Shown: positions 4,302 to 42,200 of the stretch, one piece after another
Numbering within the stretch: position 1 is the first letter of the stretch
Layout of the letters: every line of letters begins with the position of its first letter
From: a virus
IMG/VR virus record: IMGVR_UViG_3300005253_002051
DNA: 45,744 nt
Reading direction: 5' to 3' (one strand)
Program-made: the position numbers and the translations under genes
Notes under the pieces: generated by a model
Told to the model about the DNA's origin: nothing
Databases searched by the model: none
What the model saw: the letters and a program-made list of their open reading frames with translations, nothing else

Positions 4302-4313
4302 AAAGAATTTAGA

Positions 4314-5083: not shown

Positions 5084-5124
5084 TCATTTATTGAAACGTT
5101 TCTGCGGAAAAAGAGGAGATCAAA

Positions 5125-6276: not shown

Positions 6277-6303
6277 TTTTAACTTTAGAGAAGGAGAAGG
6301 AAA

Positions 6304-8079
6304 GTGAGAAAGATTTTTTCATTAGCGGCAATTGCTACTACGTTTTCGTTAGTAGCCGCTGCGTTTTCGCCTAACTCAGCAAGTGCTCAGAACTACGTCG
6401 AGATGAAACCTCTCGCTGAAGTTCTTGCAGGTGCCAGTGTTCGTGATTGTCGCGGCGGTGAAGGTCAAAATGTTACCATGATCACATGGGGTGCAGACAT
6501 TTTTACTCTTCATGCTAATGGCGCGTCACTTACTACACAGCCTGGGAGCATTTTTGCCGACGAAGGCTTAACTGTTACGTTGAAGAGAGAGGATGTTTTT
6601 GCAAAGCAGGTTGAAGCATATTTGCGTTGTGACACTCCGTATCTTCGTGGGACACTTGGACAGATTAACTTAGCTAGCGACATTACTGCTGTTAATCCTG
6701 GCACCGAGATGGTTCCGATCATTCAACTTAGCTGGTCGAATGGTGGTGATGCTCTTGTTGCTAAAAAGGGTATCAATAAGCCAGCAGATCTAAAGGGTAA
6801 GACAATCGTGGTTCAGGCTTATGGGCCGCACGTTGCTTATCTTAATAAGGTTCTTGCCGACGCCGGCTTAACGCCGAACGATGTCACTATCGTTTACACC
6901 AAAGACTTAGTTGGTTTCGATGACGATACGACACCTGGAAGCGCGTTCCTCGATGATCCAAATATTGATGCGGCAATGGTTATTATTCCAGATGCGCTAA
7001 AATTAACATCAGGTGGAACTGGCGGAACTGGCGCAGAGAATTCGTTCGACGGCGCAGAGATTATGCTTTCTACCAAATCTGCAAGCCGTGTTATCGCAGA
7101 CGTTTATGTCGTGCGCAAAGACTACCTTGAGGCAAACAGAGATGAAGTTCAGAAGTTTGTTCACGCTCTCTTAGTTGCCGAGGAAAGTCTTAGGAAGCTG
7201 GTTCTAGAGAAAGATACTCGGACAGATGAATACAACGCGATTATTGTTGCCGCTGCCGGTCATCTTCTCGATGCTCCAACTGACATCGACGACACGGAAG
7301 GTATGTATGCCGATGCCGAGACAATTGGGTTTGCTGGCAACAAGAAGTTCTTTGAAAACACTAAGTATCCAAGGAACGTCACTAAGCTTACCAGTGAGAT
7401 CCAGACGGCGTATGTCCAGCAAGGTATGTTGGCTGCTACTGCATCATTAGGTTCTGCTACTTGGAACTATGATGCTCTAAAGGCTGGCATCACTAACACG
7501 ATTGCTAAAACTACGCCTAAGTTCAATGCCGATAAGTTGGCCGCTGCTGTGACCAACATGGCATCAAGCGGCGCCTTAGATGATGGAACATTATTCGAGT
7601 TCCAAATCAACTTTCAGCCGGAACAGGACACATTCTCTGTGGAGATTTATGGAGATGCGTTTAAGCAGGTAGTTGACCTAGCATCTACTTATGCTGGCGC
7701 GATTATTACGGTTGAAGGGCACAGTGATCCAGCAAACTTCATTAAGAAGATGAAGAACGGTGCTGGTGAAGGTATTCTAAATCGTATTAGGCAGCGTGCC
7801 AAGAATCTTAGCGTTAGTCGCTCAACTGCGGTTCGTAAGGCTGTCTTGGACATGGCTGCTGCTTCTGGTGTTCCGATGGACCCAAGTCAGTTTGTGACTA
7901 TTGGTTATGGCATTTCAAACCCGGCTACTGGTGTCTGTCAGAGAAAAGATGAGCCACTTTGCTTAGCTGCTGGACTTCCAAGATATCCGGCAAATAAAGC
8001 GGAATGGCTTAACAACATGCGTGTTGTGTTTAAAATCATTAACGTCGAGGCTGAATCCTCAGCGTTCGAAACATTTTAA
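6304..8079 (+). CDS. secreted protein: periplasmic solute-binding-like N-domain plus C-terminal OmpA/MotB-like peptidoglycan-binding domain
   Basis: Signal peptide MRKIFSLAAIATTFSLVAAAFSPNSASAQ. C-terminus ITVEGHSDPANF..NLSVSRSTAVRKAVL..GYGISNP matches the OmpA_C motif. Confidence 0.7.
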   Translation: MRKIFSLAAIATTFSLVAAAFSPNSASAQNYVEMKPLAEVLAGASVRDCRGGEGQNVTMITWGADIFTLHANGASLTTQPGSIFADEGLTVTLKREDVFAKQVEAYLRCDTPYLRGTLGQINLASDITAVNPGTEMVPIIQLSWSNGGDALVAKKGINKPADLKGKTIVVQAYGPHVAYLNKVLADAGLTPNDVTIVYTKDLVGFDDDTTPGSAFLDDPNIDAAMVIIPDALKLTSGGTGGTGAENSFDGAEIMLSTKSASRVIADVYVVRKDYLEANRDEVQKFVHALLVAEESLRKLVLEKDTRTDEYNAIIVAAAGHLLDAPTDIDDTEGMYADAETIGFAGNKKFFENTKYPRNVTKLTSEIQTAYVQQGMLAATASLGSATWNYDALKAGITNTIAKTTPKFNADKLAAAVTNMASSGALDDGTLFEFQINFQPEQDTFSVEIYGDAFKQVVDLASTYAGAIITVEGHSDPANFIKKMKNGAGEGILNRIRQRAKNLSVSRSTAVRKAVLDMAAASGVPMDPSQFVTIGYGISNPATGVCQRKDEPLCLAAGLPRYPANKAEWLNNMRVVFKIINVEAESSAFETF

Positions 8080-8094
8080 GGGGAGGGTAGTAAC

Positions 8095-8898
8095 ATGTTG
8101 AAACTTAGATTATTTGCTGCTCTTGTCATAGCAGGTGGCGTGCTTGCCGCCTGCGACGACGCCCCAAGCCAGGGCAATGCAATCGGCACTACGAAAACGG
8201 CTACATCGTCGGGAAGTTCTTCTAGTGCTACGACAGTATCTTCTGTCAAGGCCAATGTAGTTTGGCCCGGTATGGCGCCCGAAGATATGAACGTTGCTAT
8301 CGATAGCAATCTAACACGTTCTAACTTTATGGTGGTTTACGATGGTTCGGGTAGCATGGATTACGATTCTTGTGGCTCAAATAGTCCAAACCGTCATGCT
8401 GATGGTGTCATAGCCCTTAAAGAGTTTGTCAAAGCAGTTCCAGACGACGCGAATCTTGGATTGTTTGTTTTCGACGGAAAAGGAATGGCTGTTAGAGTTC
8501 CTCTTGCTGTTGGAAACCGAGACATATTCTTAAGCGAGGTTGATAGCATTAGTATTGGCCAAGGAACTCCATTAAGGTCGGCGATTAAGACTGCCTACTT
8601 TGAACTTAAAAATCGAGCTTATCGTCAGCTTGGTTATGGTAGGTATTCGTTGGTTATTGTCACCGACGGAGAAGCAAACAGCGGCGAAGATCCAACAAGA
8701 ATCGTCAATGATATTATTGATGAGACTCCTGTTGAGGTTCATACCGTTGGGCTTTGCTTTAGTGGTAGACATTCGTTGAATCAGGCAGGTAGGACATTCT
8801 ACACCGACGCCCAAAATCCGGCGCAACTTATCGAAGGATTGAAGAGCGTTCTGGCTGAAACTTCAGTGGATGACGCTGCGGAGTTTAATACGCAGTAA
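8095..8898 (+). CDS. lipoprotein with von Willebrand factor A (vWA) domain
   Basis: Lipobox LAAC after an N-terminal hydrophobic stretch. MIDAS motif DGSGSM, followed by GTPLRSAI and VIVTDGEANSG. Confidence 0.75.
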   Translation: MLKLRLFAALVIAGGVLAACDDAPSQGNAIGTTKTATSSGSSSSATTVSSVKANVVWPGMAPEDMNVAIDSNLTRSNFMVVYDGSGSMDYDSCGSNSPNRHADGVIALKEFVKAVPDDANLGLFVFDGKGMAVRVPLAVGNRDIFLSEVDSISIGQGTPLRSAIKTAYFELKNRAYRQLGYGRYSLVIVTDGEANSGEDPTRIVNDIIDETPVEVHTVGLCFSGRHSLNQAGRTFYTDAQNPAQLIEGLKSVLAETSVDDAAEFNTQ

Positions 8899-8903
8899 AA
8901 GAC

Positions 8904-25350: not shown

Positions 25351-25644
25351 ATGAGTAAATCTAGCTTAACAAAAAAAGGAAAAGCATTAGTCGCTTCAGA
25401 AGAGAGACAGAAAATCGTCGCCGTGCCGATGTCCGAAAAGGAGAAAGCACTGATCGCCTTACAAGAGCGCCAAGCAAATCCGCCAGAGAAGATTGATAAT
25501 AGTTCTCTTTATGCTGGTTCGCCTATGTATTTTTATTGTAAAATATGCGATGGGGCAATTGTATTGCCTGAAAGTTTTACATGTGCTGTTCCAAAACTGT
25601 GTACGGAATGTGATTTTCTAAAAGAAATGGGCTGGCTCGAATAA
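25351..25644 (+). CDS. small Zn-ribbon protein (CKIC...CTEC)
   Basis: ORF track, 97 aa. Two CxxC pairs. Confidence 0.55.
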   Translation: MSKSSLTKKGKALVASEERQKIVAVPMSEKEKALIALQERQANPPEKIDNSSLYAGSPMYFYCKICDGAIVLPESFTCAVPKLCTECDFLKEMGWLE

Positions 25645-25661
25645 CTTATAAGGAGGCTGAT

Positions 25662-25970
25662 ATGTTTGATCAGGTTGCTTCTGAGTTACAAGAATGGAAA
25701 TGTAAGCATGGACATCATGACGTTCATGCGCGAAGACAATGGGGTCATATTTTTAATCAGCTTGAATATTGGCTAACTGGCGGTATCTGTGTACAGTGCG
25801 GAGAACCGCATCTTTATGTTTCTGATGGCCATGAAACTCTTTCTCCACTAGATCAAGCCCAAGAACTAGCAAAAGAATGGTTTCAAAATGAACAACGACT
25901 TTGGAAGAAAAGAAAATATCAAGCACGAAAAAATGAGGGTAAACTTCTATTCGAACAAATAGAATGTTGA
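25662..25970 (+). CDS. small Cys/His-rich (zinc-finger-like) protein
   Basis: RBS TAAGGAGG. Contains CKHGHHD...CVQCGEPH. Confidence 0.55.
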   Translation: MFDQVASELQEWKCKHGHHDVHARRQWGHIFNQLEYWLTGGICVQCGEPHLYVSDGHETLSPLDQAQELAKEWFQNEQRLWKKRKYQARKNEGKLLFEQIEC

Positions 25971-25980
25971 AAAGGAAAAT

Positions 25981-26283
25981 ATGAAAAACTATAAATCCGG
26001 AGACAAAATTACGATCTTAATAAACGGACAGTCATACGAAACTTACATCGACGAGCATGGAGTTCAAAGATTTCCTACTAACACCGTGCTCGATTATCTT
26101 TTTAATGTGGGCAGACTTGATTTAAATCAACTATGTATTGATTACCAGAACGGTAAGTTTGATAAAGACGACTATATGAAACTGAATATGGATCTTGGTT
26201 ATTCAATTTGCGGTTTTGCAGACCTATCTTCGTTCGAAGACTATGAAATAATAAATCCAGTATGGAATGAAGATGACGCTTAA
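25981..26283 (+). CDS. hypothetical protein (100 aa)
   Basis: ORF track. RBS AAAGGAAAA. Confidence 0.5.
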   Translation: MKNYKSGDKITILINGQSYETYIDEHGVQRFPTNTVLDYLFNVGRLDLNQLCIDYQNGKFDKDDYMKLNMDLGYSICGFADLSSFEDYEIINPVWNEDDA

Positions 26284-26764
26284 AGATTTAAAAATTTGGT
26301 GGACATTAATTTATGTCGCGTCAATTGTAATAGTAAACTATGCGTTTAGTGTTTTGCCGATATTGCCACTTGGAGAAGGTATCGTTATTCCAAGTGCAAC
26401 ATTTTTAGTTGGCTTGATTTTTGTGTTTCGCGATTTTGCTCAGAGGGAAGTTGGGCATTATGTTATCTTAGCAATGTTGCTGGCTGGTGCATTAAGCTAT
26501 GTCTTAGCAGATCCAACTATTGCTATCGCAAGCGTTACGGCATTTCTTGTTAGTGAGTTTGCAGATTGGGGTGTTTATTCGTTTACGGGACGTCCATTTC
26601 CGCAACGTGTATTGTTATCGAGCGTACTTGCAACCCCAATTGATAGCGCATTGTTTCTATATATGATTGGATTTTTCTCTATACAGGGTGTTATAATAAT
26701 GACACTGGTTAAGATGGTAGGCGCATTAGCAGTTTGGTGGATGATCAGAAAAAGGATGAGCTAA
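26267..26764 (+). CDS. membrane transporter, VUT/YhhQ (queuosine-precursor transporter, DUF165)-like
   Basis: Six predicted TM helices. AFLVSEFADWGVYSF and ATPIDSALFLYMIGF resemble conserved YhhQ-family blocks. Based on recall only. Confidence 0.4.
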   Translation: MKMTLKDLKIWWTLIYVASIVIVNYAFSVLPILPLGEGIVIPSATFLVGLIFVFRDFAQREVGHYVILAMLLAGALSYVLADPTIAIASVTAFLVSEFADWGVYSFTGRPFPQRVLLSSVLATPIDSALFLYMIGFFSIQGVIIMTLVKMVGALAVWWMIRKRMS

Positions 26765-26765
26765 T

Positions 26766-28289
26766 ATGAAAGAAAAAGTAGATTATCTTTTAAAAAGCAT
26801 GGGCGTTGTTCCATCTTCGTTTGAAGGAAACCGGCTCGTTTACACTCCGATTAATGGCACGGAGATCGGTTCAGTTCAAGACACTATCTCTTCTGTAAAA
26901 GAGATGTTGCCGACTATTAAACAGTCAACAGAAGCATTTAATGAGTGGAAAAATGTTCCAGGTCCACAACGTGGTGAGTTAATAAGACTTTTCGCTGAAC
27001 AGCTTCGTATATATAAACAGCCACTTGGAGAGCTTGTCACAATTGAGAACGGTAAAATTCTTCAAGAAGGACTCGGCGAAGTTCAGGAGATGATTGATAT
27101 CTGTGATTTTGCTGTAGGACTGTCGCGTCAACTATATGGTCTAACAATTGCTTCTGAGCGTCCTGGACATAAACTAATGGAAACATGGCACCCACTAGGT
27201 CCTGTCGCTGTTATCACTGCTTTCAACTTTCCTGTTGCTGTTTGGTCTTGGAACTTTGCGTTGGCAATAGTTTGTGGGGACAGTGTTATCTGGAAGCCAA
27301 GTGAAAAAACTCCTCTCACAGCGTTAGCTTGTCAGCAACTATTCTTGAATGCTGTGGACAATTTTGATGAAAAGTTTGATGACGTTCCTGAAAATCTGTC
27401 ACAAGTGGTTTTCGGTGGCTCGCAAGCTGGCGCCGCACTTGCTGAAAGCGATAAAATTAAGCTCGTGAGTGCTACAGGCAGCACACAGATGGGTCAGTTT
27501 ATTGCTCCCTATGTTGCAAGTCGTCTGGGACGTTATCTTCTGGAGCTGGGTGGCAATAATGGTATGATAGTCACACCATCTGCAGATTTGGATATGGCAC
27601 TTAAAGCTATCGTCTTTAGTGCTGTTGGAACTGCTGGACAACGTTGCACTACATTAAGGCGTGTTATTGTTCACGAAGATATTCATGATGATCTTGTGCG
27701 AAAACTTAAGAAGGCATACAATACAATCTCTATCGGAAATCCGCTTGATGAAAAAAATCTAGTTGGTCCATTGATTGATGGATCTGCGTTTGGTGATATG
27801 GAGCTTTCGTTATCCGTAGCTGCCAATGAAGGCGGAACTGTGTTTGGCGGTGAGCGCGTATTAGAAGATAAATTTTCTTCGTATGGATACTATGTAAAGC
27901 CGGCAATTGTTGAAATGCCAGAACAGTCAGCTATTGTCAAACGTGAGACATTTGCTCCTATTCTTTATGTAATGAAATACAGTGATTTTGATGATGCTCT
28001 AGAAATGCACAATGATGTCCCACAAGGATTAAGTTCTTGTATTTTTAGCACCGATATTAGAGAGACAGAAAAATTCCTATCGACAAGTGACTGTGGACTT
28101 GCTAATGTAAACATCGGACCAAGTGGCGCAGAAATAGGAGGCGCGTTTGGTGGAGAAAAAGAAACAGGTGGTGGTCGCGAAAGCGGAAGCGATGCTTGGA
28201 AGAGCTACATGCGTCGTGCTACTAACACGATAAACTATTCTACAGAGTTGCCATTGGCCCAAGGTATTAAATTTGATGTAGGAGATTGA
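26766..28289 (+). CDS. aldehyde dehydrogenase, ALDH7 (antiquitin / piperideine-6-carboxylate dehydrogenase) type
   Basis: Long near-identical blocks to ALDH7A1: EVQEMIDICDFAVGLSRQLYG, ITAFNFPVAVWSWN, LELGGNN, VGTAGQRCTT, ETFAPILYV and VNIGPSGAEIGGAFGGEKETGGGRESGSDAWKSYMRRATNTINYS. Confidence 0.9.
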   Translation: MKEKVDYLLKSMGVVPSSFEGNRLVYTPINGTEIGSVQDTISSVKEMLPTIKQSTEAFNEWKNVPGPQRGELIRLFAEQLRIYKQPLGELVTIENGKILQEGLGEVQEMIDICDFAVGLSRQLYGLTIASERPGHKLMETWHPLGPVAVITAFNFPVAVWSWNFALAIVCGDSVIWKPSEKTPLTALACQQLFLNAVDNFDEKFDDVPENLSQVVFGGSQAGAALAESDKIKLVSATGSTQMGQFIAPYVASRLGRYLLELGGNNGMIVTPSADLDMALKAIVFSAVGTAGQRCTTLRRVIVHEDIHDDLVRKLKKAYNTISIGNPLDEKNLVGPLIDGSAFGDMELSLSVAANEGGTVFGGERVLEDKFSSYGYYVKPAIVEMPEQSAIVKRETFAPILYVMKYSDFDDALEMHNDVPQGLSSCIFSTDIRETEKFLSTSDCGLANVNIGPSGAEIGGAFGGEKETGGGRESGSDAWKSYMRRATNTINYSTELPLAQGIKFDVGD

Positions 28290-28290
28290 T

Positions 28291-28533
28291 ATGTCAAATA
28301 TGCTTGACAAGATAAAAGAGACTGGTGTTGATGTTGACTTTATTATGTCCTTGCCATCGGTTACAGTAAGTGTTCTGGTGATCCTCTTTGTGATGGTTAT
28401 AGGTGTGTTAAGCAATAACTGGATTGAGTTTGCTACATGTTTAAGTGTCGTGATTGGGTGGATGCTTGGAGTATTTTTTGGTTTTAAGATACTCCTAATT
28501 AAAATAGAGGAGATAGATAAGGATGAAGGATAG
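28291..28533 (+). CDS. small membrane protein (80 aa)
   Basis: ORF track. The start ATGA overlaps the ALDH stop. Confidence 0.5.
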   Translation: MSNMLDKIKETGVDVDFIMSLPSVTVSVLVILFVMVIGVLSNNWIEFATCLSVVIGWMLGVFFGFKILLIKIEEIDKDEG

Positions 28534-28771
28534 GACTAAAGATTGGTTTGGAAACTTTATGATTAAGATGCTCGATGGCACAACCAAGCATCCAATTATT
28601 TCGATTATTATGTTGATTGTTTTCGTTATCCTGTTAGGATATGGTGGATGGCATCTTAAGCGTTGGGTTAATTGGGAGCTTGCTTATGGTGATGACGTAA
28701 AGCTTGCTGTCTGTGAGATGGTTAAGCCCGAGGCATTGAAAGATCCATCGGTGTGTGAAAATGATGAATAA
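28523..28771 (+). CDS. small membrane protein (82 aa, one TM)
   Basis: ORF track. RBS GGAGATAGATAAGG. Confidence 0.5.
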   Translation: MKDRTKDWFGNFMIKMLDGTTKHPIISIIMLIVFVILLGYGGWHLKRWVNWELAYGDDVKLAVCEMVKPEALKDPSVCENDE

Positions 28772-28881
28772 ATTTATGGAGATAGCAAAAGAAGAAGCTA
28801 TTTGGTCTGTTAAGATGTATTTTGAGCCAGTTACAGCGACGTTTCGATTTGTGAAGAAGCTAGTGAAGGGTAAGAGATAAA

Positions 28882-28955
28882 GCCCGGTTAGTTCAATGAT
28901 AGAACCGGACGCTCATAACGTTCTTATGGGGGTTTGATTCCCTCACCGGGTACCA
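28882..28955 (+). tRNA. tRNA-Met (anticodon CAU; initiator, elongator or Ile-lysidine type cannot be resolved by eye), CCA encoded
   Basis: The acceptor stem gcccggt/accgggt has a G-U first pair. D-stem gttc/gaac. Anticodon stem ggacg/cgttc carries the loop ctcataa (CAT). T-stem ggggg/ccctc. Discriminator A. Confidence 0.75.
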
Positions 28956-28988
28956 TTCTTTGACAGCTTTCTGGAGAGGTCAATAAAG

Positions 28989-29144
28989 ATGAAAAACCTA
29001 CTTTCTAAAATTGATACACTTAATGGATCAGTTATTGCCATTAGTAGTGTTCTATTTTTAATTGGGTTTGGAATAATTGTACCGGTTTTAGCACTAGTAA
29101 TATATTCTGTTCGTGATTACAGACGATTTGAGACTCAAAAATGA
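28989..29144 (+). CDS. small membrane protein (52 aa)
   Basis: ATG at 28989 gives MKNLLSKIDTLNGSVIAISSVLFLIGFGIIVPVLALVIYSV. The stop overlaps the next start (ATGA). Confidence 0.4.
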   Translation: MKNLLSKIDTLNGSVIAISSVLFLIGFGIIVPVLALVIYSVRDYRRFETQK

Positions 29145-29338
29145 AAAATTTACAAATGAAACTCGATACAGTTGGTTCAATATTTTTTTGTATCGGTACA
29201 TTTGTGTTTGCTTTTAATTTCTCCCCAATCAACCTTAGTTGGATAGGATACAGTAGCGCATTTTTAGCAATATTCGGCGCGATTATAGTTATTACAAGCG
29301 GTAGAATAACACGCTTCATTAAAGGAAAAGAAGAATGA
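29141..29338 (+). CDS. small membrane protein (65 aa, 2 TM)
   Basis: ORF track. Translationally coupled. Confidence 0.5.
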   Translation: MKNLQMKLDTVGSIFFCIGTFVFAFNFSPINLSWIGYSSAFLAIFGAIIVITSGRITRFIKGKEE

Positions 29339-29550
29339 GAATTTTTGTAAGATTTTTAATTGGCCTATGGGCTATTATATTTATCGGCAACGCTGGATTT
29401 TTTGTTTATAACTTAGTGGTTAGTGCTTGGGGGCCTTCCTTTGTTCTGTTCTTCGTTGTAAACTTTTTTCTAGCTATTTTTGCCGCAAGCATCTTAAATT
29501 TATCAAAGACACTGAAAGGAAAAAACAATGAAGAAAGCAGTAGTGGTTAG
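29335..29550 (+). CDS. small membrane protein (71 aa, 2 TM)
   Basis: ORF track. ATGA overlap with the previous gene. Confidence 0.5.
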   Translation: MRIFVRFLIGLWAIIFIGNAGFFVYNLVVSAWGPSFVLFFVVNFFLAIFAASILNLSKTLKGKNNEESSSG

Positions 29551-29728
29551 TTTTGCGTTGTTAGTTCTTCTAGCAGCTTGTTATCACAAAGATGAAGATG
29601 GTCGCAATAGCAACGACCGTTACTATTCCATGGATCCACAAACAGAATTATGCTTTGCCAACTCCGGAAGCCACCAGCTAGCGCATGTTCCCTGCACGGA
29701 CAAAGTGAAAGAGATGATAAACAAATGA
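29528..29728 (+). CDS. small lipoprotein (lipobox LAAC)
   Basis: ORF track. Begins MKKAVVVSFALLVLLAACYHK. The stop overlaps the rpiB start (ATGA). Confidence 0.5.
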   Translation: MKKAVVVSFALLVLLAACYHKDEDGRNSNDRYYSMDPQTELCFANSGSHQLAHVPCTDKVKEMINK

Positions 29729-30156
29729 GACATATTGGAATTGCTTGTGATCATGCTGGTTATGATTTAAAAAAGGCCATTATTGAGTTTCTTAGTGTGA
29801 ACGGTTTATCTGTTAGGGATTTTGGGACACATAGTAGAAGATCCTGTGATTATCCAACATATGCTAAAAAAGTAGCCGAATTTGTTAACGATGATCCTGA
29901 TAACATAGGCATTTTGGTTTGCGGAACTGGTATAGGAATGAGTATAACTGCTAACAGATATCTTAATGTTAGAGCTACATTGTGCCATTCAAATTATGAC
30001 GCCAAAATGTCAAGAAAACACATAGATGCTAATATAATATGTCTTGGTTCTAGAACAACTACACCAGAACTTGCCCGCGAATTTGTTGATGTTTTCTTAA
30101 GCACAGCATTCGAAGGCGGGAGACATAAAAAACGGGTAGATCAAATAAATCCTTAA
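29725..30156 (+). CDS. rpiB: ribose-5-phosphate isomerase B (RpiB/LacAB family)
   Basis: ATG at 29725 gives MRHIGIACDHAGYDLKKAI...CDYPTYAKKVA...GILVCGTGIGMSITANR...FEGGRHKKRVDQI. The longer 29650 start in the ORF track lies inside the preceding gene. Confidence 0.85.
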   Translation: MRHIGIACDHAGYDLKKAIIEFLSVNGLSVRDFGTHSRRSCDYPTYAKKVAEFVNDDPDNIGILVCGTGIGMSITANRYLNVRATLCHSNYDAKMSRKHIDANIICLGSRTTTPELAREFVDVFLSTAFEGGRHKKRVDQINP

Positions 30157-30204
30157 CTTTCTTAACCATTTTATTAAAATTTTAACCATTTTTAAATTTA
30201 TCGC

Positions 30205-30232
30205 TTGACAAATTTTTTATTCCTGTTATATT
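30205..30232 (+). promoter_or_regulatory. sigma70-type promoter (TTGACA-N16-TATATT) for the flp pilin gene
   Basis: TTGACA at 30205-30210 and TATATT at 30227-30232. The direct repeat TTAACCATTTT occurs twice upstream (30162-30172 and 30182-30192), 20 nt apart. Confidence 0.5.
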
Positions 30233-30249
30233 GATCATACACATGGACA

Positions 30250-30273
30250 TTAACGTCGTTAACGTCTTAACGT
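30250..30273 (+). promoter_or_regulatory. three tandem direct repeats TTAACGTC / TTAACGTC / TTAACGT in the flp 5' leader (candidate operator)
   Basis: Sequence TTAACGTCGTTAACGTCTTAACGTAA lies between the -10 element and the RBS AAGGGAGAC. Confidence 0.4.
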
Positions 30274-30294
30274 AAATCAGAAAGGGAGACCATT

Positions 30295-30492
30295 ATGCGT
30301 AAATTTATGACCAGACTCTGGAACGACGAGAGCGGCATTTCGTCTGTTGAGTATGCGCTGCTTCTAGCGTTCGTTGCGGCTGGCATTATCATTGGCGCCG
30401 AGGTGCTCAGTGAGGCCGTACAGGCCGAGATGGAAAGCACTGCCGAATGTATCAGCGACTCTGCTACCTGTGGTGCCGTAACCGGCGAGTAA
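30295..30492 (+). CDS. flp: Flp/Fap family type IVb prepilin
   Basis: Flp motif WNDESG|ISSVEYALLLAFVAAGIIIGAEV, with the processing site after the Gly. The protein is 65 aa. GC is much higher than in neighbouring genes. Confidence 0.8.
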   Translation: MRKFMTRLWNDESGISSVEYALLLAFVAAGIIIGAEVLSEAVQAEMESTAECISDSATCGAVTGE

Positions 30493-30510
30493 TCCGGTGA
30501 TCAATAATGG

Positions 30511-30549
30511 TTGACTCGGGTGCTATCGTTTTAATAGTAGCCGAGTCAA
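30511..30549 (+). terminator. long imperfect hairpin (about 16 bp) immediately after the flp gene (attenuator or partial terminator)
   Basis: TTGACTCGGGTGCTAT-cgtttta-ATAGTAGCCGAGTCAA with one mismatch and one G-U pair. A weak T-run follows. Confidence 0.5.
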
Positions 30550-30585
30550 TCATCGTTCTTAACTTCATGACGGAGGTGGTATGTT

Positions 30586-31683
30586 ATGTATAGGAGAAAT
30601 CGTGCGTTTCTAATGCTCGGACTAGCGGGATTGCTGGCTGGCGCCTCGGTGTATATGGCAAGGAATTGGATTCAGGATCAAACCCAATCGCCCGCGTCAG
30701 TGCAAAATGTCAAACAGATCGAAACAACTAAGGTTGTTGTTGCAGCCTCCAAACTCAGTTATGGAATCAAAGTGCAAAGTATGCATCTCCGTATTGTTGA
30801 TTGGCCAGTTAAGGCTGTTCCCGAGGGATCATTTTCAACTGTTGAAGAGATCCTCGGCGAGGGTGATCAACCCGTAAGCCGCGTTGTACTTCGCACTATT
30901 GAAATTAACGAGCCAGTTTTGAAAACCAAGGTTACTGGTTTTGGCGGCCGAGCAAGCCTGTCTACACTTATTGCTCCTGGTATGCGAGCTACTACAATTC
31001 GAGTGAACGATGTCAACGGAGTTGCTGGATTGGTGCTGCCCGGTGATCGTGTTGACATTTTACTTACACGAAGTCGGGATGCTAACGCTAGCAGGCGAAA
31101 CAAGAGTAATCTACAAACTGATATTTTCTTGCAAAATATGAAGGTCCTTGCTGTTGATCAGGATTCTAACGAAGAGAGAAATAAGCCGGCTGTGGTTAAA
31201 GCTGTCACTATTGAAGTGACTCCGACGCAGGCTCAGAAACTAACCCTCGCACAAAAACTCGGTTCTTTGTCGTTGGCGTTGCGTAATGTAAATGCTGTAG
31301 ATGTCGAAGATACGGGTCCTGTTAAGGCGCATGATTTAGGATTTGGTGAGGCAAATTTGGCGCCGACTCCTGTGGTCGAAGCTAGCAAGCCTGCAGAAAC
31401 TGTTAAAGCGCCAATTGTTATTAAGCCAGTAAAAACAGTTTCGCATAGTGTCGTGGTCAAGAAGGCGAAAAGAGCCTATACAGTTAACATTGTGCGCGGC
31501 GTGAAAGCGACCGAATACGAGGTCGAGCAGGAGAAGCCAACTTTTAGTGCTCCGGCGTTTTCTAAGCCTCTTAACTTGATCGCGCCCACGCTAACTATTT
31601 TGACTCCTACGAAACCTACTTTGGGAGTGGTATCTCTTGTGCCATGTAGTAGTGAGTTCACTTCAAACGAAGACTGTATGTAA
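30586..31683 (+). CDS. cpaB: Flp pilus assembly protein CpaB/RcpC-like
   Basis: N-terminal TM RNRAFLMLGLAGLLAGASVYMA is followed by an SAF-like block VVVAASKLSYGIKVQSMHLRIVDWPVKAVPEGSF and an RcpC-like beta domain. RBS GGAGGTG. Confidence 0.65.
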   Translation: MYRRNRAFLMLGLAGLLAGASVYMARNWIQDQTQSPASVQNVKQIETTKVVVAASKLSYGIKVQSMHLRIVDWPVKAVPEGSFSTVEEILGEGDQPVSRVVLRTIEINEPVLKTKVTGFGGRASLSTLIAPGMRATTIRVNDVNGVAGLVLPGDRVDILLTRSRDANASRRNKSNLQTDIFLQNMKVLAVDQDSNEERNKPAVVKAVTIEVTPTQAQKLTLAQKLGSLSLALRNVNAVDVEDTGPVKAHDLGFGEANLAPTPVVEASKPAETVKAPIVIKPVKTVSHSVVVKKAKRAYTVNIVRGVKATEYEVEQEKPTFSAPAFSKPLNLIAPTLTILTPTKPTLGVVSLVPCSSEFTSNEDCM

Positions 31684-31700
31684 AATAAGGGAGATTTCAA

Positions 31701-33458
31701 ATGCTGATATCATTTATTTTTGCTGTTATCTTTGCGGGTATTAGCTTTGCTTGTATCCGCGGAAGCACCGGCATTTTTACTGCTGTGCTAACAGGCATCG
31801 TGACTTATCTGTTAGTCTATTTCGGACTGCCAACACTTTCCTATGGATTCTACGGGATTCCTTTCTTTGCCGCGCTCTTAGGTGGTAGTATTATTATCAT
31901 CGGAGGGAACAAGAATAACGATATATCATTTGTATCAGGGCTTAGCATTTTCGTTGTTGGTCTTGTTTTCGTAATGGTTATCCCATTCTTCGCAACTCCT
32001 GTTATGATGGGCAATGCAGAAGCCTATCGCGCTATTCTAAGTGACGGCGAGGTGGATACGACTGGTGCGTTTGATTCTGATGTCGCCTACATTGATCCTA
32101 CTCAAACCCGAATGGTAGATCAGACACTTGCTGTTAAGCTTGCCGAAACCAAGCTGGGCGAAGATGCAGGGCTTGGAAGTCGAGTTACTATTGGCGCAAT
32201 GCGAATCCAAAATGTCGGCGGTAAACTATTTTGGGTTGGACCTCTTGAGTGGTCTACTCCTGTCAAATGGGCCTTTGGTGACGCAGGAACTCCTGGTTAT
32301 ATGGTAGTAAGTGCTTTCAATCAACGCGACGTTCGTTTGGTTAAGGAAGTTGCTGGTGAGCCATTAAGCCTTGAGATTGGTGAAGGTGCCTACATGTGGG
32401 ATGATCTGGACCGCTACGTTTGGCGTAACGGATATGCTTCTACGCCATATGCCGATTTCACTTTCGAAGTCAACGATGAGTGGCGTCCGTATTGGGTAAT
32501 CACACGGTATGAGAGGACAGTTGGATATTCCGGCAATGTTGCTAACGGCGTGATTGTTGTTGATCCGCAAACTCGAGAAATCGAGTCTTACGATATGGAT
32601 AAGGTTCCGGAATGGATTGACCGGGTGCAGCCCGAGTCGTTTATTGCCGAACAGGTTGACGATTGGGGCAAATGGGTTCATGGTTTTTGGGGCAACTTCG
32701 AAGGCCTTGATAAACTGAAGCACACTCCCGGCCAAGGCCAAGACAGCGGCTTGAGTCTTGTTTATGGCAGTGATGGTCGCGCCAAATGGTATACTGGCAT
32801 CCAGAGCGACGGCGCGGATCAAGGCACAACTGGCTTCATGTTGGTTGATACCCGCACCGGCAAGGCAAAGTATTACAGGCAGTCCGGTATCACGGAGCAG
32901 GCATGTCAGCGGAATATTGCTGGTCTGATTGCCGAGAAGACTGGTTGGTCTGTCACAAACTGTATCCTTTATAACGTCGCCGGGCATCCGACCTACATTG
33001 CGATCATTAAGGATGCTGACGGCAATCCGAAGCAGATTGGTGTGGCGAGCGTCGTTAACCGTGATGTTGTCGTAAGTCATAACCTTATCAAAGGCGCGCT
33101 TAGGGCTTTCCGTGCTAACCTCCGCAGCAAAGGCAATGTTGCTGGAACTGACTCTAACGTGGATGTTTTAACTGCTACGGGCATTGTTATGCGATTTGGT
33201 TCAGAAGTGCTCGAAGGGAATACTTATTTCTATGTCGTTATTGATACCGAGCCGCATAAGGTGTTTATGTCAGCACCCGGTCTCAACTCGGCAGAATTGC
33301 CTGTGACTTTGCCTGGTGATCGTGTCACAATTCACTATGACGATGCTGGACGTTCTATTGTCGATATGACTAGTTACGACAACCAGAGACTTACGTTTCA
33401 GCGATCCGAAACTGAGGTAGAGGTAGAGATTCAGCGTGAAGAGGTTCCTAAGCAGTAA
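31701..33458 (+). CDS. large membrane-anchored protein (4 N-terminal TM helices plus about 450-aa beta-rich extracytoplasmic domain), unknown function
   Basis: ORF track, 585 aa. RBS AAGGGAGAT. GC-rich like flp and cpaB. It occupies the position where cpaC/E/F would be expected but carries none of their motifs. Confidence 0.6.
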   Translation: MLISFIFAVIFAGISFACIRGSTGIFTAVLTGIVTYLLVYFGLPTLSYGFYGIPFFAALLGGSIIIIGGNKNNDISFVSGLSIFVVGLVFVMVIPFFATPVMMGNAEAYRAILSDGEVDTTGAFDSDVAYIDPTQTRMVDQTLAVKLAETKLGEDAGLGSRVTIGAMRIQNVGGKLFWVGPLEWSTPVKWAFGDAGTPGYMVVSAFNQRDVRLVKEVAGEPLSLEIGEGAYMWDDLDRYVWRNGYASTPYADFTFEVNDEWRPYWVITRYERTVGYSGNVANGVIVVDPQTREIESYDMDKVPEWIDRVQPESFIAEQVDDWGKWVHGFWGNFEGLDKLKHTPGQGQDSGLSLVYGSDGRAKWYTGIQSDGADQGTTGFMLVDTRTGKAKYYRQSGITEQACQRNIAGLIAEKTGWSVTNCILYNVAGHPTYIAIIKDADGNPKQIGVASVVNRDVVVSHNLIKGALRAFRANLRSKGNVAGTDSNVDVLTATGIVMRFGSEVLEGNTYFYVVIDTEPHKVFMSAPGLNSAELPVTLPGDRVTIHYDDAGRSIVDMTSYDNQRLTFQRSETEVEVEIQREEVPKQ

Positions 33459-33479
33459 GGGATCTGAGATAGTTGTGAC

Positions 33480-33512
33480 ATGGCGGGGGTAGAAGCCCGC
33501 CATATCATTTTT
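33480..33512 (+). terminator. rho-independent terminator of the flp-cpaB island
   Basis: ATGGCGGG-ggtagaag-CCCGCCAT, then TATCATTTTTG. Confidence 0.7.
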
Positions 33513-33523: not shown

Positions 33524-33551
33524 TTGACTTACAAATGTTTTTCTGTATAAT
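33524..33551 (+). promoter_or_regulatory. consensus promoter (TTGACT-N16-TATAAT)
   Basis: TTGACT at 33524-33529 and TATAAT at 33546-33551, upstream of the NADAR gene. Confidence 0.55.
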
Positions 33552-34072: not shown

Positions 34073-34161
34073 ATACTAGTACTCCCTGTTCTTCAAAAAC
34101 ATAATATTCAGGATATCTCTGATTAAATGAAACTTGACATTTCCAATGAAATGGATGTATA

Positions 34162-34440
34162 ATGAAAATACAATTTAAGAAATTTTCTGCGCTTAATAGC
34201 GAAGAAATGAAATTCATTTACTGTATGCTTAGAAAGTATGGTGAAATGGAAGAGGCTAAAGAAAGAAATATTTCTAAGAAAAAATTTAAATCAACCAATA
34301 GAAGACCAAAACCAAAACCGAAAGTAAAGAAAGATTCGCCGTATCCTGATCTTTATGACTTTAATGATCTTAAATGGGAAAAGTGTACCGATGAAAAATT
34401 TCTTGCTTATCGAGAAATAATGGAAAGAGCAGGTGACTAA
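34162..34440 (+). CDS. lysine-rich small protein (92 aa); start uncertain
   Basis: ORF track. A TTGACA(34134)-N18-TATAAT(34158-34163) promoter overlaps the annotated ATG at 34162, so translation more likely begins at a downstream Met. Basic KPKPKVKK stretch. Confidence 0.4.
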   Translation: MKIQFKKFSALNSEEMKFIYCMLRKYGEMEEAKERNISKKKFKSTNRRPKPKPKVKKDSPYPDLYDFNDLKWEKCTDEKFLAYREIMERAGD

Positions 34441-35008: not shown

Positions 35009-35082
35009 TCTGATTGACATTAATAGAAAGCGTGTTAGTATACATTATAACAAATTGGTTTAATTTGGCTTGGGAGAGAAAA

Positions 35083-35418
35083 ATGACGGATATCTTAGAG
35101 ATCATTCAGATGTCGGATATTGCTGATCCGATTGAAGAGACCAAAACCAAAATCAAAACAGCCAAGCCAAAAATGTATCGTGTCATTTTTCTAAATGATG
35201 ACTTTACACCAATGGAGTTTGTTACGGAAATTCTACAGCAAATCTTTAGCAAATCGCGCGCTGAAGCAACTGCTATCATGTTGGAAGTTCATAACTTCGG
35301 TAAAAGCATCGTTGGAACGTATACATGCGAGATTGCCGAGCAAAAAGTTTATGAGACGATGGAGAACGCAAAGATTAGTGGTTATCCATTAAGCGCGATA
35401 ACCGAGCCGGCAGATTAA
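35083..35418 (+). CDS. clpS: ATP-dependent Clp protease adaptor protein ClpS
   Basis: MYRVIFLNDDFTPMEFVTEILQQIFSKSRAEATAIMLEVHNFGKSIVGTYTCEIAEQKV aligns with the ClpS core YKVILLNDDYTPMEFV...LAVH..GKA..G.FT.EVAETK. ATG at 35083 after GGGAGAG. The 35014 start in the ORF track is an artefact. Confidence 0.85.
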   Translation: MTDILEIIQMSDIADPIEETKTKIKTAKPKMYRVIFLNDDFTPMEFVTEILQQIFSKSRAEATAIMLEVHNFGKSIVGTYTCEIAEQKVYETMENAKISGYPLSAITEPAD

Positions 35419-37393: not shown

Positions 37394-38020
37394 ATGTCAC
37401 AGAAGCCTGATTATCAAGAGCTGGGCAATGCGGATATTAGCGCCAGCATCAGCAATTTAAACGTTCATGACCACTTAAAGGATCTAAACGTTGAAGAGCT
37501 TCGTGCTCTTTGTGATGAAGATCGTGCTCCTTTTGGTGTATGTATCCTTAATATTACCGGTGAACTTAATGTAGGCACCATTGTTCGAAATGCTCTATTA
37601 ACTGGAGCACGGAAGGTAGCCATTCTTGGTCGTCGTAAGTATGACAAGCGTGGAACTGTTGGTAGTGAAAACTACATTGATGTTGAGCGTATTGAGGCTC
37701 TTAATGAAGATGGATTAACTATTAACAAGGACATCTTCTGGACCTGGATCGACGATAATAACTTTATGCCAATCTTCTGCGAACATGGCGGGATTCCTTT
37801 GACATGTGTTGATTGGAGTGAATGGATACGTGATATGAGCCCCCGAAATCCTTGTTTGGTTTTCGGTAATGAAAATCGTGGTGTTCAGGATGATATCTTA
37901 AATGACGATCGTGGTCACGTCGTGAGCATCCCCCAGCGCGGCGTGATAAGATCTTATAACGTCGCTAGTGCGTCTGGTATCGTGATGTATAGTATGACTG
38001 AGTGGATGCGGTGGCTTTAA
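37394..38020 (+). CDS. SpoU/TrmH-family (SPOUT) RNA 2'-O-methyltransferase
   Basis: SPOUT motifs LVFGNENRGV and VSIPQRGVIRSYNVASASGIVMY. Confidence 0.8.
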   Translation: MSQKPDYQELGNADISASISNLNVHDHLKDLNVEELRALCDEDRAPFGVCILNITGELNVGTIVRNALLTGARKVAILGRRKYDKRGTVGSENYIDVERIEALNEDGLTINKDIFWTWIDDNNFMPIFCEHGGIPLTCVDWSEWIRDMSPRNPCLVFGNENRGVQDDILNDDRGHVVSIPQRGVIRSYNVASASGIVMYSMTEWMRWL

Positions 38021-39251: not shown

Positions 39252-42200
39252 TTGCTATGGATCGTATATATGCCAGAATTAAAAGAATATATAATTCGCG
39301 TTCAAAACAAATCCGATGTCGACGGCTTAGTCACGGAACTCCAATCTTGGGGTGTCACAGTTGACCACGTTTACAAAAGAGCGATGTTTGGTGTTTGCGC
39401 TAAACTAACTACTCTTCTTGTCGACTGGTATAAAAATGACGCTCGTGTCATTAGTATCGAAGAATCTGCCACATTTGAATCATCGGACCGCCAAGACAAC
39501 GCTCCAGCCCATCTTGATAGAATAGATCAGACAGATCTTCCATTAAGTGGAAGCTTTACTTTTTCTTCTGATGGTACAGGAGTGACAGCGTATATAATCG
39601 ATTCTGGTGCTATCTTCAATCACATAGAATTTGAAGGAAGGATCTCTCCTGTAGATAAAATTGGTTTTCCAGGAACTCCTTTTGATCCATTTTCAAGTGG
39701 TGGCATCGACGAATTTGGACATGGAACACATGTTGCTGGTATTATTGGAAGCAAAACATACGGTGTCACAAAAAAGGTTGTAATGAAAACTGCAAAAGTT
39801 TTCAATCGAACAGGATTTACTACATCAGGAACAATAATTGCCGCAATTGATGCGGTTATCGAAGATTATACTAACGCAGGGAAACCAGCTTCTCTATGCA
39901 ATATGAGTCTTGGTGCTCCGGTAAGTTCAACAGCACCAGAAACTTCTGTGGAAACTGCTGTATTGGCTATGATAAGCGAAGGGATAACGGTAGTAGTTGC
40001 TGCTGGAAATAATAACACCGACGTTGAGAACTTCCAACCAGCAAGATTGCCAGAAGTGATAACTGTTGGTGCGGTAGACGATACTGACTCGAGAGCAGTA
40101 TTTTCTAATTTTGGTAATTCTGAAGGATCTGTATTAAATCCAGGAGGAGAGTTTGGTACTTTTGATGATGCAGCTTCTAATACTGGATCTGCTGTCGATG
40201 TTTTCGCTCCAGGAACAAATATAATTTCCACATGGATTCCTGAACCTGGTGAGACTGACGGGGTTAATACTCTTAGTGGAACAAGTATGGCAAGTCCAGT
40301 TGTTGCTGGTGTTGCTGCGCTCGTTTTAGAAAATGCTCCAAGCGCGCTACCAGCTCTTGTACAAAGTGACATTGTTTCGTTTGCAACATCCGGAAAAGTA
40401 ACAAACATTCCTGGTGGAACAACCGACAAACTAATCTTTTCAATATTTGTTGATCACGTTATTGAATGGATAACTCCTGCTGGCAATGTTGATTTTCCAG
40501 AAGGACAAACACTCAATATACCGTTAGAAGCTATTGGTTTTACTGGAAATGCTGTTGGGTTTTCGTTAGTTTCTGGAACGTTGCCGCCCGGCATAACTTT
40601 AAATGGCGTAACCGGACTACTGTCTGGTGTGGCAGCCGCAGTAACAGTAGACACGATAAGCACGTTTACAATACGGGCATCAGATACTGTTGTTTTTGAG
40701 AACCGAACATTTAGTATTACAATCGTGGATAACCCTTTGCCGCCGGTTTGGCAGACATCACCCAATTTAGGATCAATCGAAGAAGGGGGCACGATTGCTA
40801 TTCAGCTTACAGCGGTAAGTCTAAATGATGCTCCAATTGTATATAGTGGTTCGTTGCCTCATGGATGGTTTGTTAGCACAACTGGATTTGTTACAGGAAT
40901 AGCGCCGCTAGTCGTTAATGTTGATTTTGAAACCAATTTTACTGTAACAGCTGATGATGGAATTCTTAGCACTCCGCGGACATTTCTTATCACGATCGCA
41001 CAAAATGACGATTTCTTACCCCCAGCCGAACCAAGATGGATAACTCCTGAGGGCTCCATTGGCGAGGTAATAGACACAAATGTATTTAATTTTCAATTAG
41101 AAGCAATTGATGAAAATTTTGATCCTCTGCCATTAAAATATTTTCTAACGTTACAAACAGCAGATGGAAGCACTTTTGGGCCGGTAGGTGAATTGCCACC
41201 AGGATTGCTGTTGGGTGAAGATACGGGATTGATTTCTGGAACATTTTTCTCTAATACACTCGATGAAGTGTTGGATTTTACTTTCGCTGTTTTTCTTTCT
41301 GATGGGGCGAATATTGTTGCTCGAACATTTACTATTCGTACTAGAAAACAAGCAGAAAATTTACCTCCCGAATGGGTAACACCGCAAGGAAGTTTAGGTT
41401 TAGTAGTAGCCGGAAGCTTTGCTACATTTACTGTGGCGGCGACTGATCCTGATAGCGGCCCCAATGACTTGACTTATTTTTTAAGTTCGGGCAGTCTTCC
41501 ACCAGGATTTAGTATAGATGCCAACTCAGGAGAAATTTCTGGAGTTGCAGTGTTGGTTGCCTCTGATGAGTTTTTCCCATTCATCTTGGGCGTTACTGAT
41601 GGAGAAGATACTGTTGTAAGATCGTTTTCTCTTTTAGTAGAAAAACTAAATTCAAGACCCGAGTGGGTAACGCCAGAAGGATTGTTATTACGTATAAACG
41701 AAGGACAACTTGCTGTAATTACATTAGAAGCAACTGATCCGGAGGATGATCAATTAACATTTAGTATCGTAAGTGGCGTTCTTCCGCCTGACTTGATTCT
41801 AAATCCAAATACCGGATCGATTTCTGGTTCTATATCAGACGTAACTGAAGATACTACGTTTTCATTTACGGTGCGCGTGGACGATAGTCTAAGTAACAGT
41901 CTTGGAGAAGAGTTATTCGCGGACAGAGATTTTTTTATTGAAGTTATTGATGGAATATTAAACACTAACAGACCACCAGAGTGGATTACTCCTGAAGGTG
42001 TTTTAACACAAGCAAACGAAGGACAAGCATATTTCTTCCAACTTGAGGCAACTGATCCTGACAACGGTCCGCAATTGCTTAATTACACACTAAATGCTGG
42101 CAGTCTTCCAAATGGTTTAGCATTAAATGCTATCAGTGGTGTTATATCTGGGTTTCCAAATGATCCAGACACTATGGATACTGTTTCTATTTTTATTGTA

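Follow-up and report, generated by a model that had tools for sequence, protein, structure and literature searches.

Pilus subunits which are encoded by a virus and handled by the machinery of its host have been described for bacteria and archaea. In Pseudomonas and Xylella the prophage protein P-FimU is incorporated into type IV pili and blocks phages binding to the pilus tip, and PilA-like genes, for which a blocking role was proposed, are found in virulent phages as well (Sztanko et al., Cell Rep 2026, PMC12952977). The pilins PilA1/2 of the SNJ2 provirus of Natrinema are assembled by the host machinery, dominate the surface of the cell and favour the formation of biofilm (Xiang et al., Cell Rep 2025, PMC12426801). 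The locus described here lies in the IMG/VR record IMGVR_UViG_3300005253_002051, a viral contig of 45,744 nucleotides which was analysed as a whole and is called the window in the following. Positions 30160-33512 form one compact transcription unit on the + strand, made up of a promoter, a gene for a Flp/Fap prepilin (flp), a stem-loop, a gene for the CpaB/RcpC protein of Tad pilus machines (cpaB), a gene for a membrane protein of 585 amino acids and an intrinsic terminator. The reading put forward, tentatively and as somewhat short of probable, is that the phage replaces components of the pilus by way of the Tad machine of the host, probably for superinfection exclusion.

Like P-FimU and the PilA-like proteins, the phage Flp is a homologue of a host pilus subunit in which the part needed for assembly is kept and the exposed part is diversified, and it would likewise use the machine of the host. 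Those proteins are type IVa subunits, whereas the present locus encodes a type IVc (Tad/Flp) major pilin together with the non-pilin CpaB and a captured operon hairpin, and is found in a phage of an uncultured alphaproteobacterial host. The likeness to SNJ2 consists in viral major pilins of host-chromosome origin which are, or in the present case would be, assembled by the secretion machinery of the host; SNJ2 differs in being an archaeal, temperate pleolipovirus, in that its pili are the receptor for another virus, and in lacking an alignment-complex gene. The likely outcome, a host pilus modified against superinfection, would also resemble that of Tip, Aqs1, PfsE and Zip. These are small unrelated inhibitors which bind PilB, PilC or PilZ, whereas here the phage genes are homologues of parts of the pilus. 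Viral pilus subunits acting on host machines are thus known, and the combination of a Tad/Flp pilin, an alignment-complex gene and an attenuator in a large environmental phage is new; no full-text literature on phage, Flp pilin and CpaB together was found.

With bacterial tad/cpa loci (Caulobacter pilA-cpaA-K, Aggregatibacter flp-tad, Pseudomonas flp-rcp-tad) the phage locus shares the order flp, hairpin, cpaB, a prepilin of the G/XXXXEY type and a CpaB with a transmembrane segment, a SAF and an RcpC domain. In the Tad machine, CpaB makes up the alignment cage at the inner membrane, as described for Caulobacter CpaB and Pseudomonas RcpC (PMC13170226).

The captured segment and its bacterial relatives

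The part of the operon shared with bacterial loci consists of the following features.

30295..30492, + strand: flp, Flp/Fap prepilin of 65 amino acids with leader MRKFMTRLWNDESG, mature sequence beginning ISSVEYALLLAFVAAGIIIG... and a C-terminal Cys-x7-Cys loop
30507..30553, + strand: stem-loop of 13+6 bp, an attenuator or mRNA-3'-end hairpin
30586..31683, + strand: cpaB, CpaB/RcpC alignment-subcomplex protein of 365 amino acids with a transmembrane anchor at the N-terminus, a SAF and an RcpC domain, and a C-terminal end C-x9-C-M peculiar to the phages

The predicted cleavage region of Flp reads ...DESG|ISSVEYALLLAFVAAGIIIG..., and with its 65 residues, the G/XXXXEY motif (...DESG|ISSVEYALLLAFVAAGIIIGA...) and a hydrophobic helix the protein corresponds to a prepilin as usually delimited (about 50-80 amino acids, a helix of about 20 residues); the processing motif G|ISSVEY read by an earlier note on this DNA, which was made from the letters alone, is indeed present. 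The precomputed annotation assigns PF04964 (PF04964.20) to this exact protein and to all 120 homologues listed out of 1377. When 32 phage and bacterial sequences were aligned, most of residues 11-45 and the whole block 13-26 proved to be invariant, in contrast to the C-terminal Cys-loop tail, which is hypervariable in sequence and length. The first 28 mature residues of the phage Flp are identical to those of the Flp of the bacterial contig L097, and the first 18 nucleotides of flp are shared with this contig too. A scan with the 18-mer ATGCGTAAATTTATGACC yielded 10 loci, with L094 and L097 as the real ones; the loci L093, L095, L096, L098-L101 and the IMG/VR contig L092 were rejected as chance matches, and L092 was thereby also dropped as another contig breaking within flp. 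Among 50,697 deposited phage genomes no match to Flp was found.

The identification of cpaB, for which the earlier note had proposed a profile search, is unambiguous: the protein scores 228.6 bits with the equivalog model TIGR03177 (cut-off 71), 111.5 bits with PF16976 RcpC (cut-off 28.8) and 23.6 bits with SAF. Its transmembrane anchor FLMLGLAGLLAGASVYMA occupies residues 8-25 and is followed by the periplasmic SAF/beta-clip part with domains at 49-115 and 124-233. An alignment profile of phage and bacterial CpaBs (A2) matches the RcpC structure 9gzr in the PDB with E=2.4e-12. In the same 50,697 phage genomes only one weak partial match to CpaB was obtained, next to a secretin-like gene of Microcystis phage MaAM05 (L110; MW495066.1 25695-34141). 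There the CpaB-like gene (34 % identity over 158 amino acids) adjoins an 886 amino acid secretin annotated as sctC and small upstream open reading frames (ORFs); this may be another instance, independent of the present one, of a phage carrying Tad-like parts, or the record may be contaminated.

Closest to the phage CpaB, at 60-64 % identity, are proteins encoded by short contigs from uncultured bacteria, and the nearest named relatives (<=56 %) are metagenome-assembled genomes (MAGs) of Rhodospirillales and Kiloniellales and other Alphaproteobacteria. These were detected by an alignment-based genome scan, whereas queries with single proteins against viral contigs and genome contigs gave no related loci. 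The closest bacterial relatives are uncultured alphaproteobacteria with 58-68 % GC and the same G|ISSVEY Flp, which agrees with the proposal of a donor richer in GC; GCA_012974725.1 is an example of an alphaproteobacterial MAG with such a Flp locus. Three contigs of this donor type were compared.

L010: flp-cpaB-[IS]-cpaC-tadG-tadE-tadE-cpaE-cpaF-tadB
L097 (58.6 % GC): flp-cpaB-cpaC
L103: flp-cpaB-cpaC-...-T2SSE-T2SSF-T2SSF-TPR-TPR-Peptidase_A24

The Flps of all three have the unusual G|ISSVEYALLLAFVAAGII in common. Their loci go on with cpaC after cpaB, contain cpaF and tadB in L010 and L103 (with tadC in L103), and in L103, which also has TPR/TadD, end with the TadV peptidase (Peptidase_A24), so that the donor lineage carries the full machine including the peptidase. 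In the host lineage a small protein of 84-87 amino acids is encoded after cpaC. The phage copy differs in stopping after cpaB, in having an AT-rich phage promoter where the donors are GC-rich, and in a shortened, Cys-containing C-terminus of CpaB.

Another feature in common is the hairpin. The 96-nucleotide stretch with the stem-loop folds with -32.7 kcal/mol (z = -4.2), and none of 200 shuffled sequences folds as well. A hairpin 3' of flp was found in five phage variants (window, L001, L009, L002 and L011) with three unrelated stem sequences, one in the window, L001 and L009, one in L002 and one in L011, whichever gene comes next. As it is kept with unrelated stems whatever gene follows, it has the signature of a selected RNA structure. 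The bacterial operons in L097, L103 and L010 likewise have a GC-rich hairpin directly 3' of flp, which is terminator-like in L010, and the resemblance to pilin operons noticed earlier is thus borne out in phages and donors. By analogy the hairpin would allow high expression of the pilin and lower expression of the genes downstream. Because the donors share both the gene order and the post-flp hairpin, the flp-hairpin-cpaB segment is, judged by this comparison, the 5' end of a tad operon of the host lineage, attenuator included.

The rest of this operon is not found in the phage. Pfam scans of essentially all ORFs of the window detected no secretin/CpaC, CpaE, CpaF/T2SSE, TadB/C/T2SSF, TadV/Peptidase_A24 or TadE, and no complete Tad system was seen either in the window ORFs or in 21.8 kb of the relative L001, a contig of 142 kb with the ENA designation ERZ23499028 scaffold_169; relatives were viewed over +/-10 kb round the module. 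The missing machinery reported by the earlier note is therefore confirmed for both stretches. Beside the phage cpaB there is no secretin gene cpaC/rcpA; the unrelated 585 amino acid gene and the terminator follow instead.

Age, selection and divergence of cpaB

At least five different variants of the phage carry the module. By neighbour joining, the seven CpaBs of phage type fall into a single clade with the donor-type bacterial group as its sister. All seven have a short linker and a C-x8-9-C-M/I end, and in all of them the tail of the bacterial sister clade, a Pro-rich linker with EPISLL...GDDG, is missing. Between the window and the diverged sister phage L009 the CpaBs are 62 % identical (dN, the nonsynonymous divergence, 0.295; dS, the synonymous divergence, 1.48), and CpaB differs by 38-40 % between sister phages, as compared to protein identities of 86-96 % for flanking genes, 86 % for flp and 89 % for the 585 amino acid protein. 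The dN/dS ratios for the same pair of phages are 0.12 for flp, 0.20 for cpaB and 0.12 for the 585 amino acid gene. Promoter, ribosome binding site (RBS) and hairpin are kept across phages with a dS of about 0.5-1.5, and the ORFs are intact in every variant.

The earlier note had described flp and cpaB as recently acquired, at roughly 50 % GC against about 30 % in neighbouring small ORFs. The contrast in composition is real, with 54.5 % GC in flp (GC at third codon positions, GC3, 0.61) and 40.3 % in the window; it was overstated in that cpaB has 46.5 %, the neighbouring small ORFs have 30-43 %, and other long genes of the window are equally GC-rich (5125-8898 at 46-47 %, 11662-12693 at 50 %). 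The 585 amino acid gene has 47.9 %. The composition of cpaB has been ameliorated to 42-46 % GC in the phages, while flp stays at 53-55 %. A recent acquisition does not agree with the monophyletic phage CpaBs, their own C-terminus, the divergence between sister phages and the dN/dS values. From this clade, the divergence, the dN/dS of 0.12-0.20 and the amelioration of cpaB we infer that flp and cpaB are old in the phage and maintained by selection, with cpaB evolving fast. The same data exclude for practical purposes that the segment is an inert hitch-hiking fragment of decaying host DNA. That only a partial operon is present and that cpaB has been lost in some relatives would suit such a fragment, but intact ORFs in every variant, dN/dS of 0.12-0.20 and the conserved promoter, RBS and hairpin contradict decay, and the probability of this explanation is close to negligible.

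Two observations on flp itself may be added. The GC3 of flp is about 0.61-0.63 in all phage copies (window, L009, L011), against 0.32-0.41 in the co-captured cpaB; repeated gene conversion with the host flp or selection at the level of the mRNA are possible causes. Secondly, four independent assemblies, the relatives L002-L005 of window positions 30400-31700, all end inside flp (first 180 nucleotides). Over the promoter and the 5' half of flp, phages which have diverged elsewhere are nearly identical in their DNA, part of which is also common with the host flp. As such DNA probably causes branches in assembly graphs, metagenomes may systematically contain phage loci with flp as fragments.

The altered end of CpaB is also where a different role has to be weighed. 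The phage Flp and/or CpaB might be poison subunits which jam the host machine in a dominant-negative way, by saturating TadV or the platform or by forming alignment rings unable to couple to the secretin, so that the cell is not piliated and pilus-dependent superinfection is blocked. In Caulobacter the C-terminal region of CpaB contacts the outer-membrane subcomplex (PMC13170226), and just this region is changed in the phage, where C-x9-C-M takes the place of the long Pro-rich linker and the ...EPISLL...GDDG end. The near-consensus promoter predicts strong expression of Flp, and the same possibility has been raised for a truncated phage PilA (PMC12952977). On the other hand, the phage Flp keeps the full architecture of a functional host allele including the Cys-Cys loop, and varies in the way bacterial alleles do, for which a mere plug would have no need; in CpaB all residues that are invariant across A2 are retained, as is the conserved FSAPAFSKPLNL segment; and cpaB is missing in some sister phages. 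By analogy the outcome of jamming would match that of Tip, Aqs1 and PfsE, reached with homologous parts. We consider this explanation rather unlikely.

The membrane protein of 585 amino acids

31701..33458, + strand: gene of a co-transcribed inner-membrane protein of 585 amino acids with four transmembrane helices, alpha/beta modules in tandem of putative PepSY type and an OB fold at the C-terminus

This gene starts 17 nucleotides after the end of the cpaB ORF (31683 to 31701). The protein has no match in Pfam, PHROG, NCBIfam, PADLOC or the PDB sequences and a single viral homologue in BFVD. AlphaFold models (confidence score pLDDT 80 for the full length, pLDDT 88.5 and pTM 0.88 for the central domain) have four N-terminal transmembrane helices, ectodomain modules which may be PepSY-like (of the YpmB/YpeB/FoxB kind), and a C-terminal five-stranded beta-barrel superposable on OB folds. 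The four helices described by the earlier note are thus retained, and its beta-rich ectodomain becomes a mixed alpha/beta one with an OB fold. Its unknown family is unknown to Pfam, PHROG, NCBIfam and PADLOC, but the protein is no orphan: homologues fall into about 2,700 clusters at 50 % identity, to be exact 2,699 with E <= 1e-3, among them 1,107 with E <= 1e-30. The family has a uniform architecture of 530-650 amino acids, a conserved P-x3-YGF-x-G-x-P loop between the second and third transmembrane helix, and many invariant Gly, Trp and Pro residues in the ectodomain; no Pfam model of the family exists. Some of its UniRef entries are titled 'cell shape-determining protein', the basis of which is not visible. 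A very large membrane protein family without a Pfam model, common to bacteria and unrelated phages, is hereby flagged.

Homologues occur as stand-alone chromosomal genes in Flavobacterium, Bernardetia, Flammeovirga, a Romboutsia MAG and a proteobacterial MAG, and no pilus genes were found near these chromosomal copies. Further homologues are encoded by an Enterococcus phage, by Lactobacillus Herelleviridae, where they belong to the early region, and by a phage-like contig of 570 kb which has no pilin gene close to it. Closer to the window, the relative L109 (58 % identical) has the syntenic arrangement rpiB, a gene of 600 amino acids, AAA_28 and ClpS, with a tRNA in the interval and without flp and cpaB, and L107 (64 % identical) lacks flp and cpaB at the locus as well. 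Four sister phages, L002-L005 (84 % identical), have the 3' end of flp, a perfect hairpin and the RBS of the 585 amino acid gene without cpaB. The tRNA of L109 (5029-5127, 99 nucleotides; Rfam RF00005, 50.9 bits) sits at the exact position of flp-cpaB; it was not called by ARAGORN and probably has a long insert or variable arm. Since it takes the place of flp-cpaB, the interval between rpiB and the 585 amino acid gene is an insertion hot spot, and since L109 and L107 carry the gene without flp and cpaB, these two were inserted upstream of a phage gene which was already there. The 585 amino acid gene is by this comparison the older resident, ancestral at the phage locus, and the view of the earlier note that it substitutes for the tad machinery does not hold. 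Flp and the 585 amino acid protein as an obligate pair were rejected on the same grounds. The GC content of the gene is 2-8 points above that of its own genome in every phage carrying it; this excess was discarded as evidence of horizontal transfer, because an excess common to all carriers makes the composition uninformative in this respect.

One could still imagine that Flp, CpaB and the 585 amino acid protein constitute a phage-specific envelope device, with the latter as platform, which is partly independent of the host Tad system. The three genes are tightly spaced in one transcription unit, flp stands directly before the 585 amino acid gene in L002-L005, and both the phage Flp and the phage CpaB end in Cys-loop motifs. 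Against this are the locus in L109 and L107, the stand-alone homologues in Bacteroidota, Lactobacillus/Enterococcus phages and the 570-kb contig, and the lack of an encoded ATPase or secretin, and we hold such a device to be very improbable. A related idea, very improbable too, is that the phage Flp serves as substrate to a new device of the envelope, encoded by the phage, with the PepSY-repeat/OB-fold protein as the working partner which handles the processed pilin. If this were true, CpaB would be an optional adaptor to the host secretin, expression would possibly be tied to the cell-cycle regulator CtrA, the family of about 2,700 clusters would gain its first function, and the locus would represent a minimal, host-parasitic pilus-like system. 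The best explanation is that the 585 amino acid protein is a separate envelope protein merely sharing the transcript.

Transcription signals and a possible link to CtrA

30162..30172, + strand: distal TTAACCATTTT box, an exact repeat which holds the CtrA half-site word TTAACCAT and is not kept in L009
30182..30195, + strand: proximal TTAACCATTTT box, read as TTAA-N6-TTAA, ending 9 nucleotides 5' of the -35 hexamer
30205..30232, + strand: sigma-70-type promoter TTGACA-16-TATATT with extended -10 TG, 11/12 consensus matches
30250..30273, + strand: TTAACGT(C) three times in tandem within the 5' leader, recurring after 9 and 8 nucleotides
30284..30288, + strand: Shine-Dalgarno sequence GGGAG of flp, by direct sequence reading
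33480..33512, + strand: intrinsic terminator closing the operon, stem-loop 33480-33503 with an 8-bp stem including 6 GC pairs, then the T-run ATCATTTTTG

The strong terminator after the 585 amino acid gene is as described previously, a GC-rich stem-loop with a T-run being typical of rho-independent termination. Directly 3' of the operon lie two further near-consensus sigma-70 promoters (33524-33551, 11/12; 34134-34163, 12/12), which suggests a block of independently, strongly transcribed early-type cassettes.

The repeats seen by the earlier note are exact, with TTAACGT at 30250, 30259 and 30267 and TTAACCATTTT at 30162 and 30182, and half of the six TTAACGT copies in the window fall within the flp leader. 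Among these candidate operator sites, strict conservation is limited to the TTAACCATTTT box next to the promoter. Together with the -35 hexamer and the spacer this proximal box makes up a block of about 53 nucleotides in which the window and L009 do not differ, despite a dS of about 0.5 in neighbouring genes. In L009 the distal box is degenerate, and so are the repeats of the leader, with substitutions in two of the three TTAACGT copies. The leader has no match in Rfam.

The word TTAACCAT is the published half-site of CtrA, with TTAA-N6/7-TTAA as the full site (PMC3692519, PMC6180460, PMC11264516). Caulobacter pilA is under CtrA control (PMC11264516), and CtrA boxes mark promoters of phages of alphaproteobacteria which use pili or flagella, a situation termed 'lytic deferment' (Mascolo et al. 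2022, PMC9437464). The flp promoter resembles these cases in having, 5' of the -35 hexamer of a phage pilin gene with an alphaproteobacterial host, two TTAACCAT words and one TTAA-N6-TTAA. It differs in that no full TTAA-N7-TTAA site is present upstream of the promoter, that the TTAA-N6-TTAA element does not overlap the -35 hexamer, and that the promoter is already near consensus; the count of TTAACCAT in the whole window, 4 against 2.6 expected, is not above chance. A putative CtrA site at this promoter is therefore a lead and not more. That the TTAA boxes were inherited with flp from a CtrA-controlled donor promoter was rejected: the regions upstream of donor flp genes are GC-rich, have another conserved motif and contain no TTAA boxes, so that the boxes are phage sequence.

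Proposed role in the infected cell

The sequence of events which we propose for the replacement of pilus components is as follows. The flp-hairpin-cpaB segment of the host lineage was, as the comparison shows, inserted into the variable spot between rpiB and the older phage membrane protein gene, where it is driven by the strong sigma-70-type promoter of the phage. Upon infection phage Flp would be made in excess because the hairpin lowers read-through. It would be cleaved at G|ISSVEY by the TadV prepilin peptidase of the host and polymerised by the host CpaF/TadBC/CpaC machine, which is plausible because the polymerisation helix is identical to that of host Flp. Only the exposed C-terminal disulfide loop would differ, and with it the surface of the pilus. 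The phage CpaB, with the A2-invariant residues kept and a different extreme C-terminus, could join the periplasmic alignment ring. The benefit would be that a receptor component is replaced and pilus-dependent competitor or sibling phages are excluded from the infected cell; by analogy, superinfection exclusion is the most likely pay-off. A conflict of phage versus phage is in line with three observations, namely the hypervariability of the loop, the unusual speed at which cpaB evolves and the polymorphism in presence and absence. Exploitation of the host Tad apparatus, one of several possibilities in the earlier note, is accordingly the best reading of a processing site and helix identical to those of a lineage with full Tad machines.

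Several points weigh against it. In the Pfam scan made here Flp scored E=1.8e-7 and 31.3 bits with Flp_Fap, 0.9 bit under the gathering score of 32.2, so that the profile check is positive by its E-value and by the precomputed annotation and falls short by the score. The search for tad genes covered the 45.7-kb window and a 21.8-kb stretch of the 142-kb contig L001. Since cpaB is missing in the sister phages L002-L005 it is dispensable, and the conserved N-terminal helix of Flp would equally suit a poison subunit. That phages of the system, this one included, use the Tad pilus as receptor is an assumption of the reading. Finally, the origin of flp and cpaB is shown by comparison, and the assembly of the phage Flp into pili and the pay-off are deduced.

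The phage and its neighbouring genes

The window contains three tRNAs, dense and mostly co-directional small ORFs and many strong PHROG matches. A gene of the T4 gp30.3 family has its best matches, among 50,697 phage records, in Caulobacter phages CcrPW and CcrColossus and Sinorhizobium phages phiN3, phiM12, phiM7 and phiM19; blastn of the region and of 5000-12900 against these records gave no match. Near-identical and diverged relatives are present in metagenome assemblies, one of them on the 142-kb contig L001 and one labelled marine sediment. On these grounds the element is taken to be a large phage (at least 142 kb) of an alphaproteobacterium from marine sediment.

Over 3048-16779 and 22593-28289 there is an extended series of genes of host-like character with envelope, stress and metabolic functions. 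It includes an S41 peptidase with PDZ domain, TelA, a VWA protein, an ABC permease and ATPase, Hsp20, a radical SAM protein, an aldehyde dehydrogenase, two NMT1/phosphonate-binding-like periplasmic proteins, one with an OmpA domain, and a HisKA/HATPase histidine kinase at 23172-23933. Outside both ranges are RpiB (29725-30156), ClpS (35014-35418) and a SpoU methylase (37394-38020). Just 5' of rpiB, at 28291-29550, five or six small predicted membrane proteins (51-82 amino acids) are encoded, which vary among the window, L001 and L009. At 17380-19956 an ORF of 858 amino acids has major vault protein domains (MVP_shoulder 2.8e-20, Vault_3 5.7e-11), which is unusual in a phage, and at 39252-44264 a subtilase of 1670 amino acids (Peptidase_S8) with many He_PIG/cadherin-type Ig repeats is encoded, which all relatives have conserved; as a protease it could be secreted or sit on the surface of the virion.

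Against this background the captured genes might be auxiliary genes in favour of adhesion, which boost or maintain Tad piliation so that infected cells stay on sediment particles or with their neighbours. The gain would be in phage production or local transmission, in the way SNJ2 pilins promote biofilm. The origin of relatives from marine-sediment metagenomes, the richness of the window in host-like genes (OmpA-domain protein, VWA, TelA, Hsp20, ABC transporter parts), the apparently fully functional Flp and CpaB and the SNJ2 precedent are in line with this. However, of about twelve components the phage supplies only two, and more piliation would result only where precisely these are limiting; the hypervariable exposed loop together with the fast cpaB (62 % against 86-96 % in the flanks) suggests an arms race more than a housekeeping aid. 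An adhesion role is for these reasons judged clearly unlikely.

Implications

Phage pilus subunits have only just been recognised as a means of rewriting the host surface, and the locus would extend this idea to Tad/Flp (type IVc) pili and to a phage of sediment alphaproteobacteria. CpaB is, to our knowledge, the first non-pilin machine component in such a phage set. The series of variants flp-cpaB-585, flp-585 and tRNA-585 represents a natural comparative experiment, and the identical assembly helix combined with a hypervariable loop leads to the testable prediction that receptors on Tad pili may be masked by the phage.

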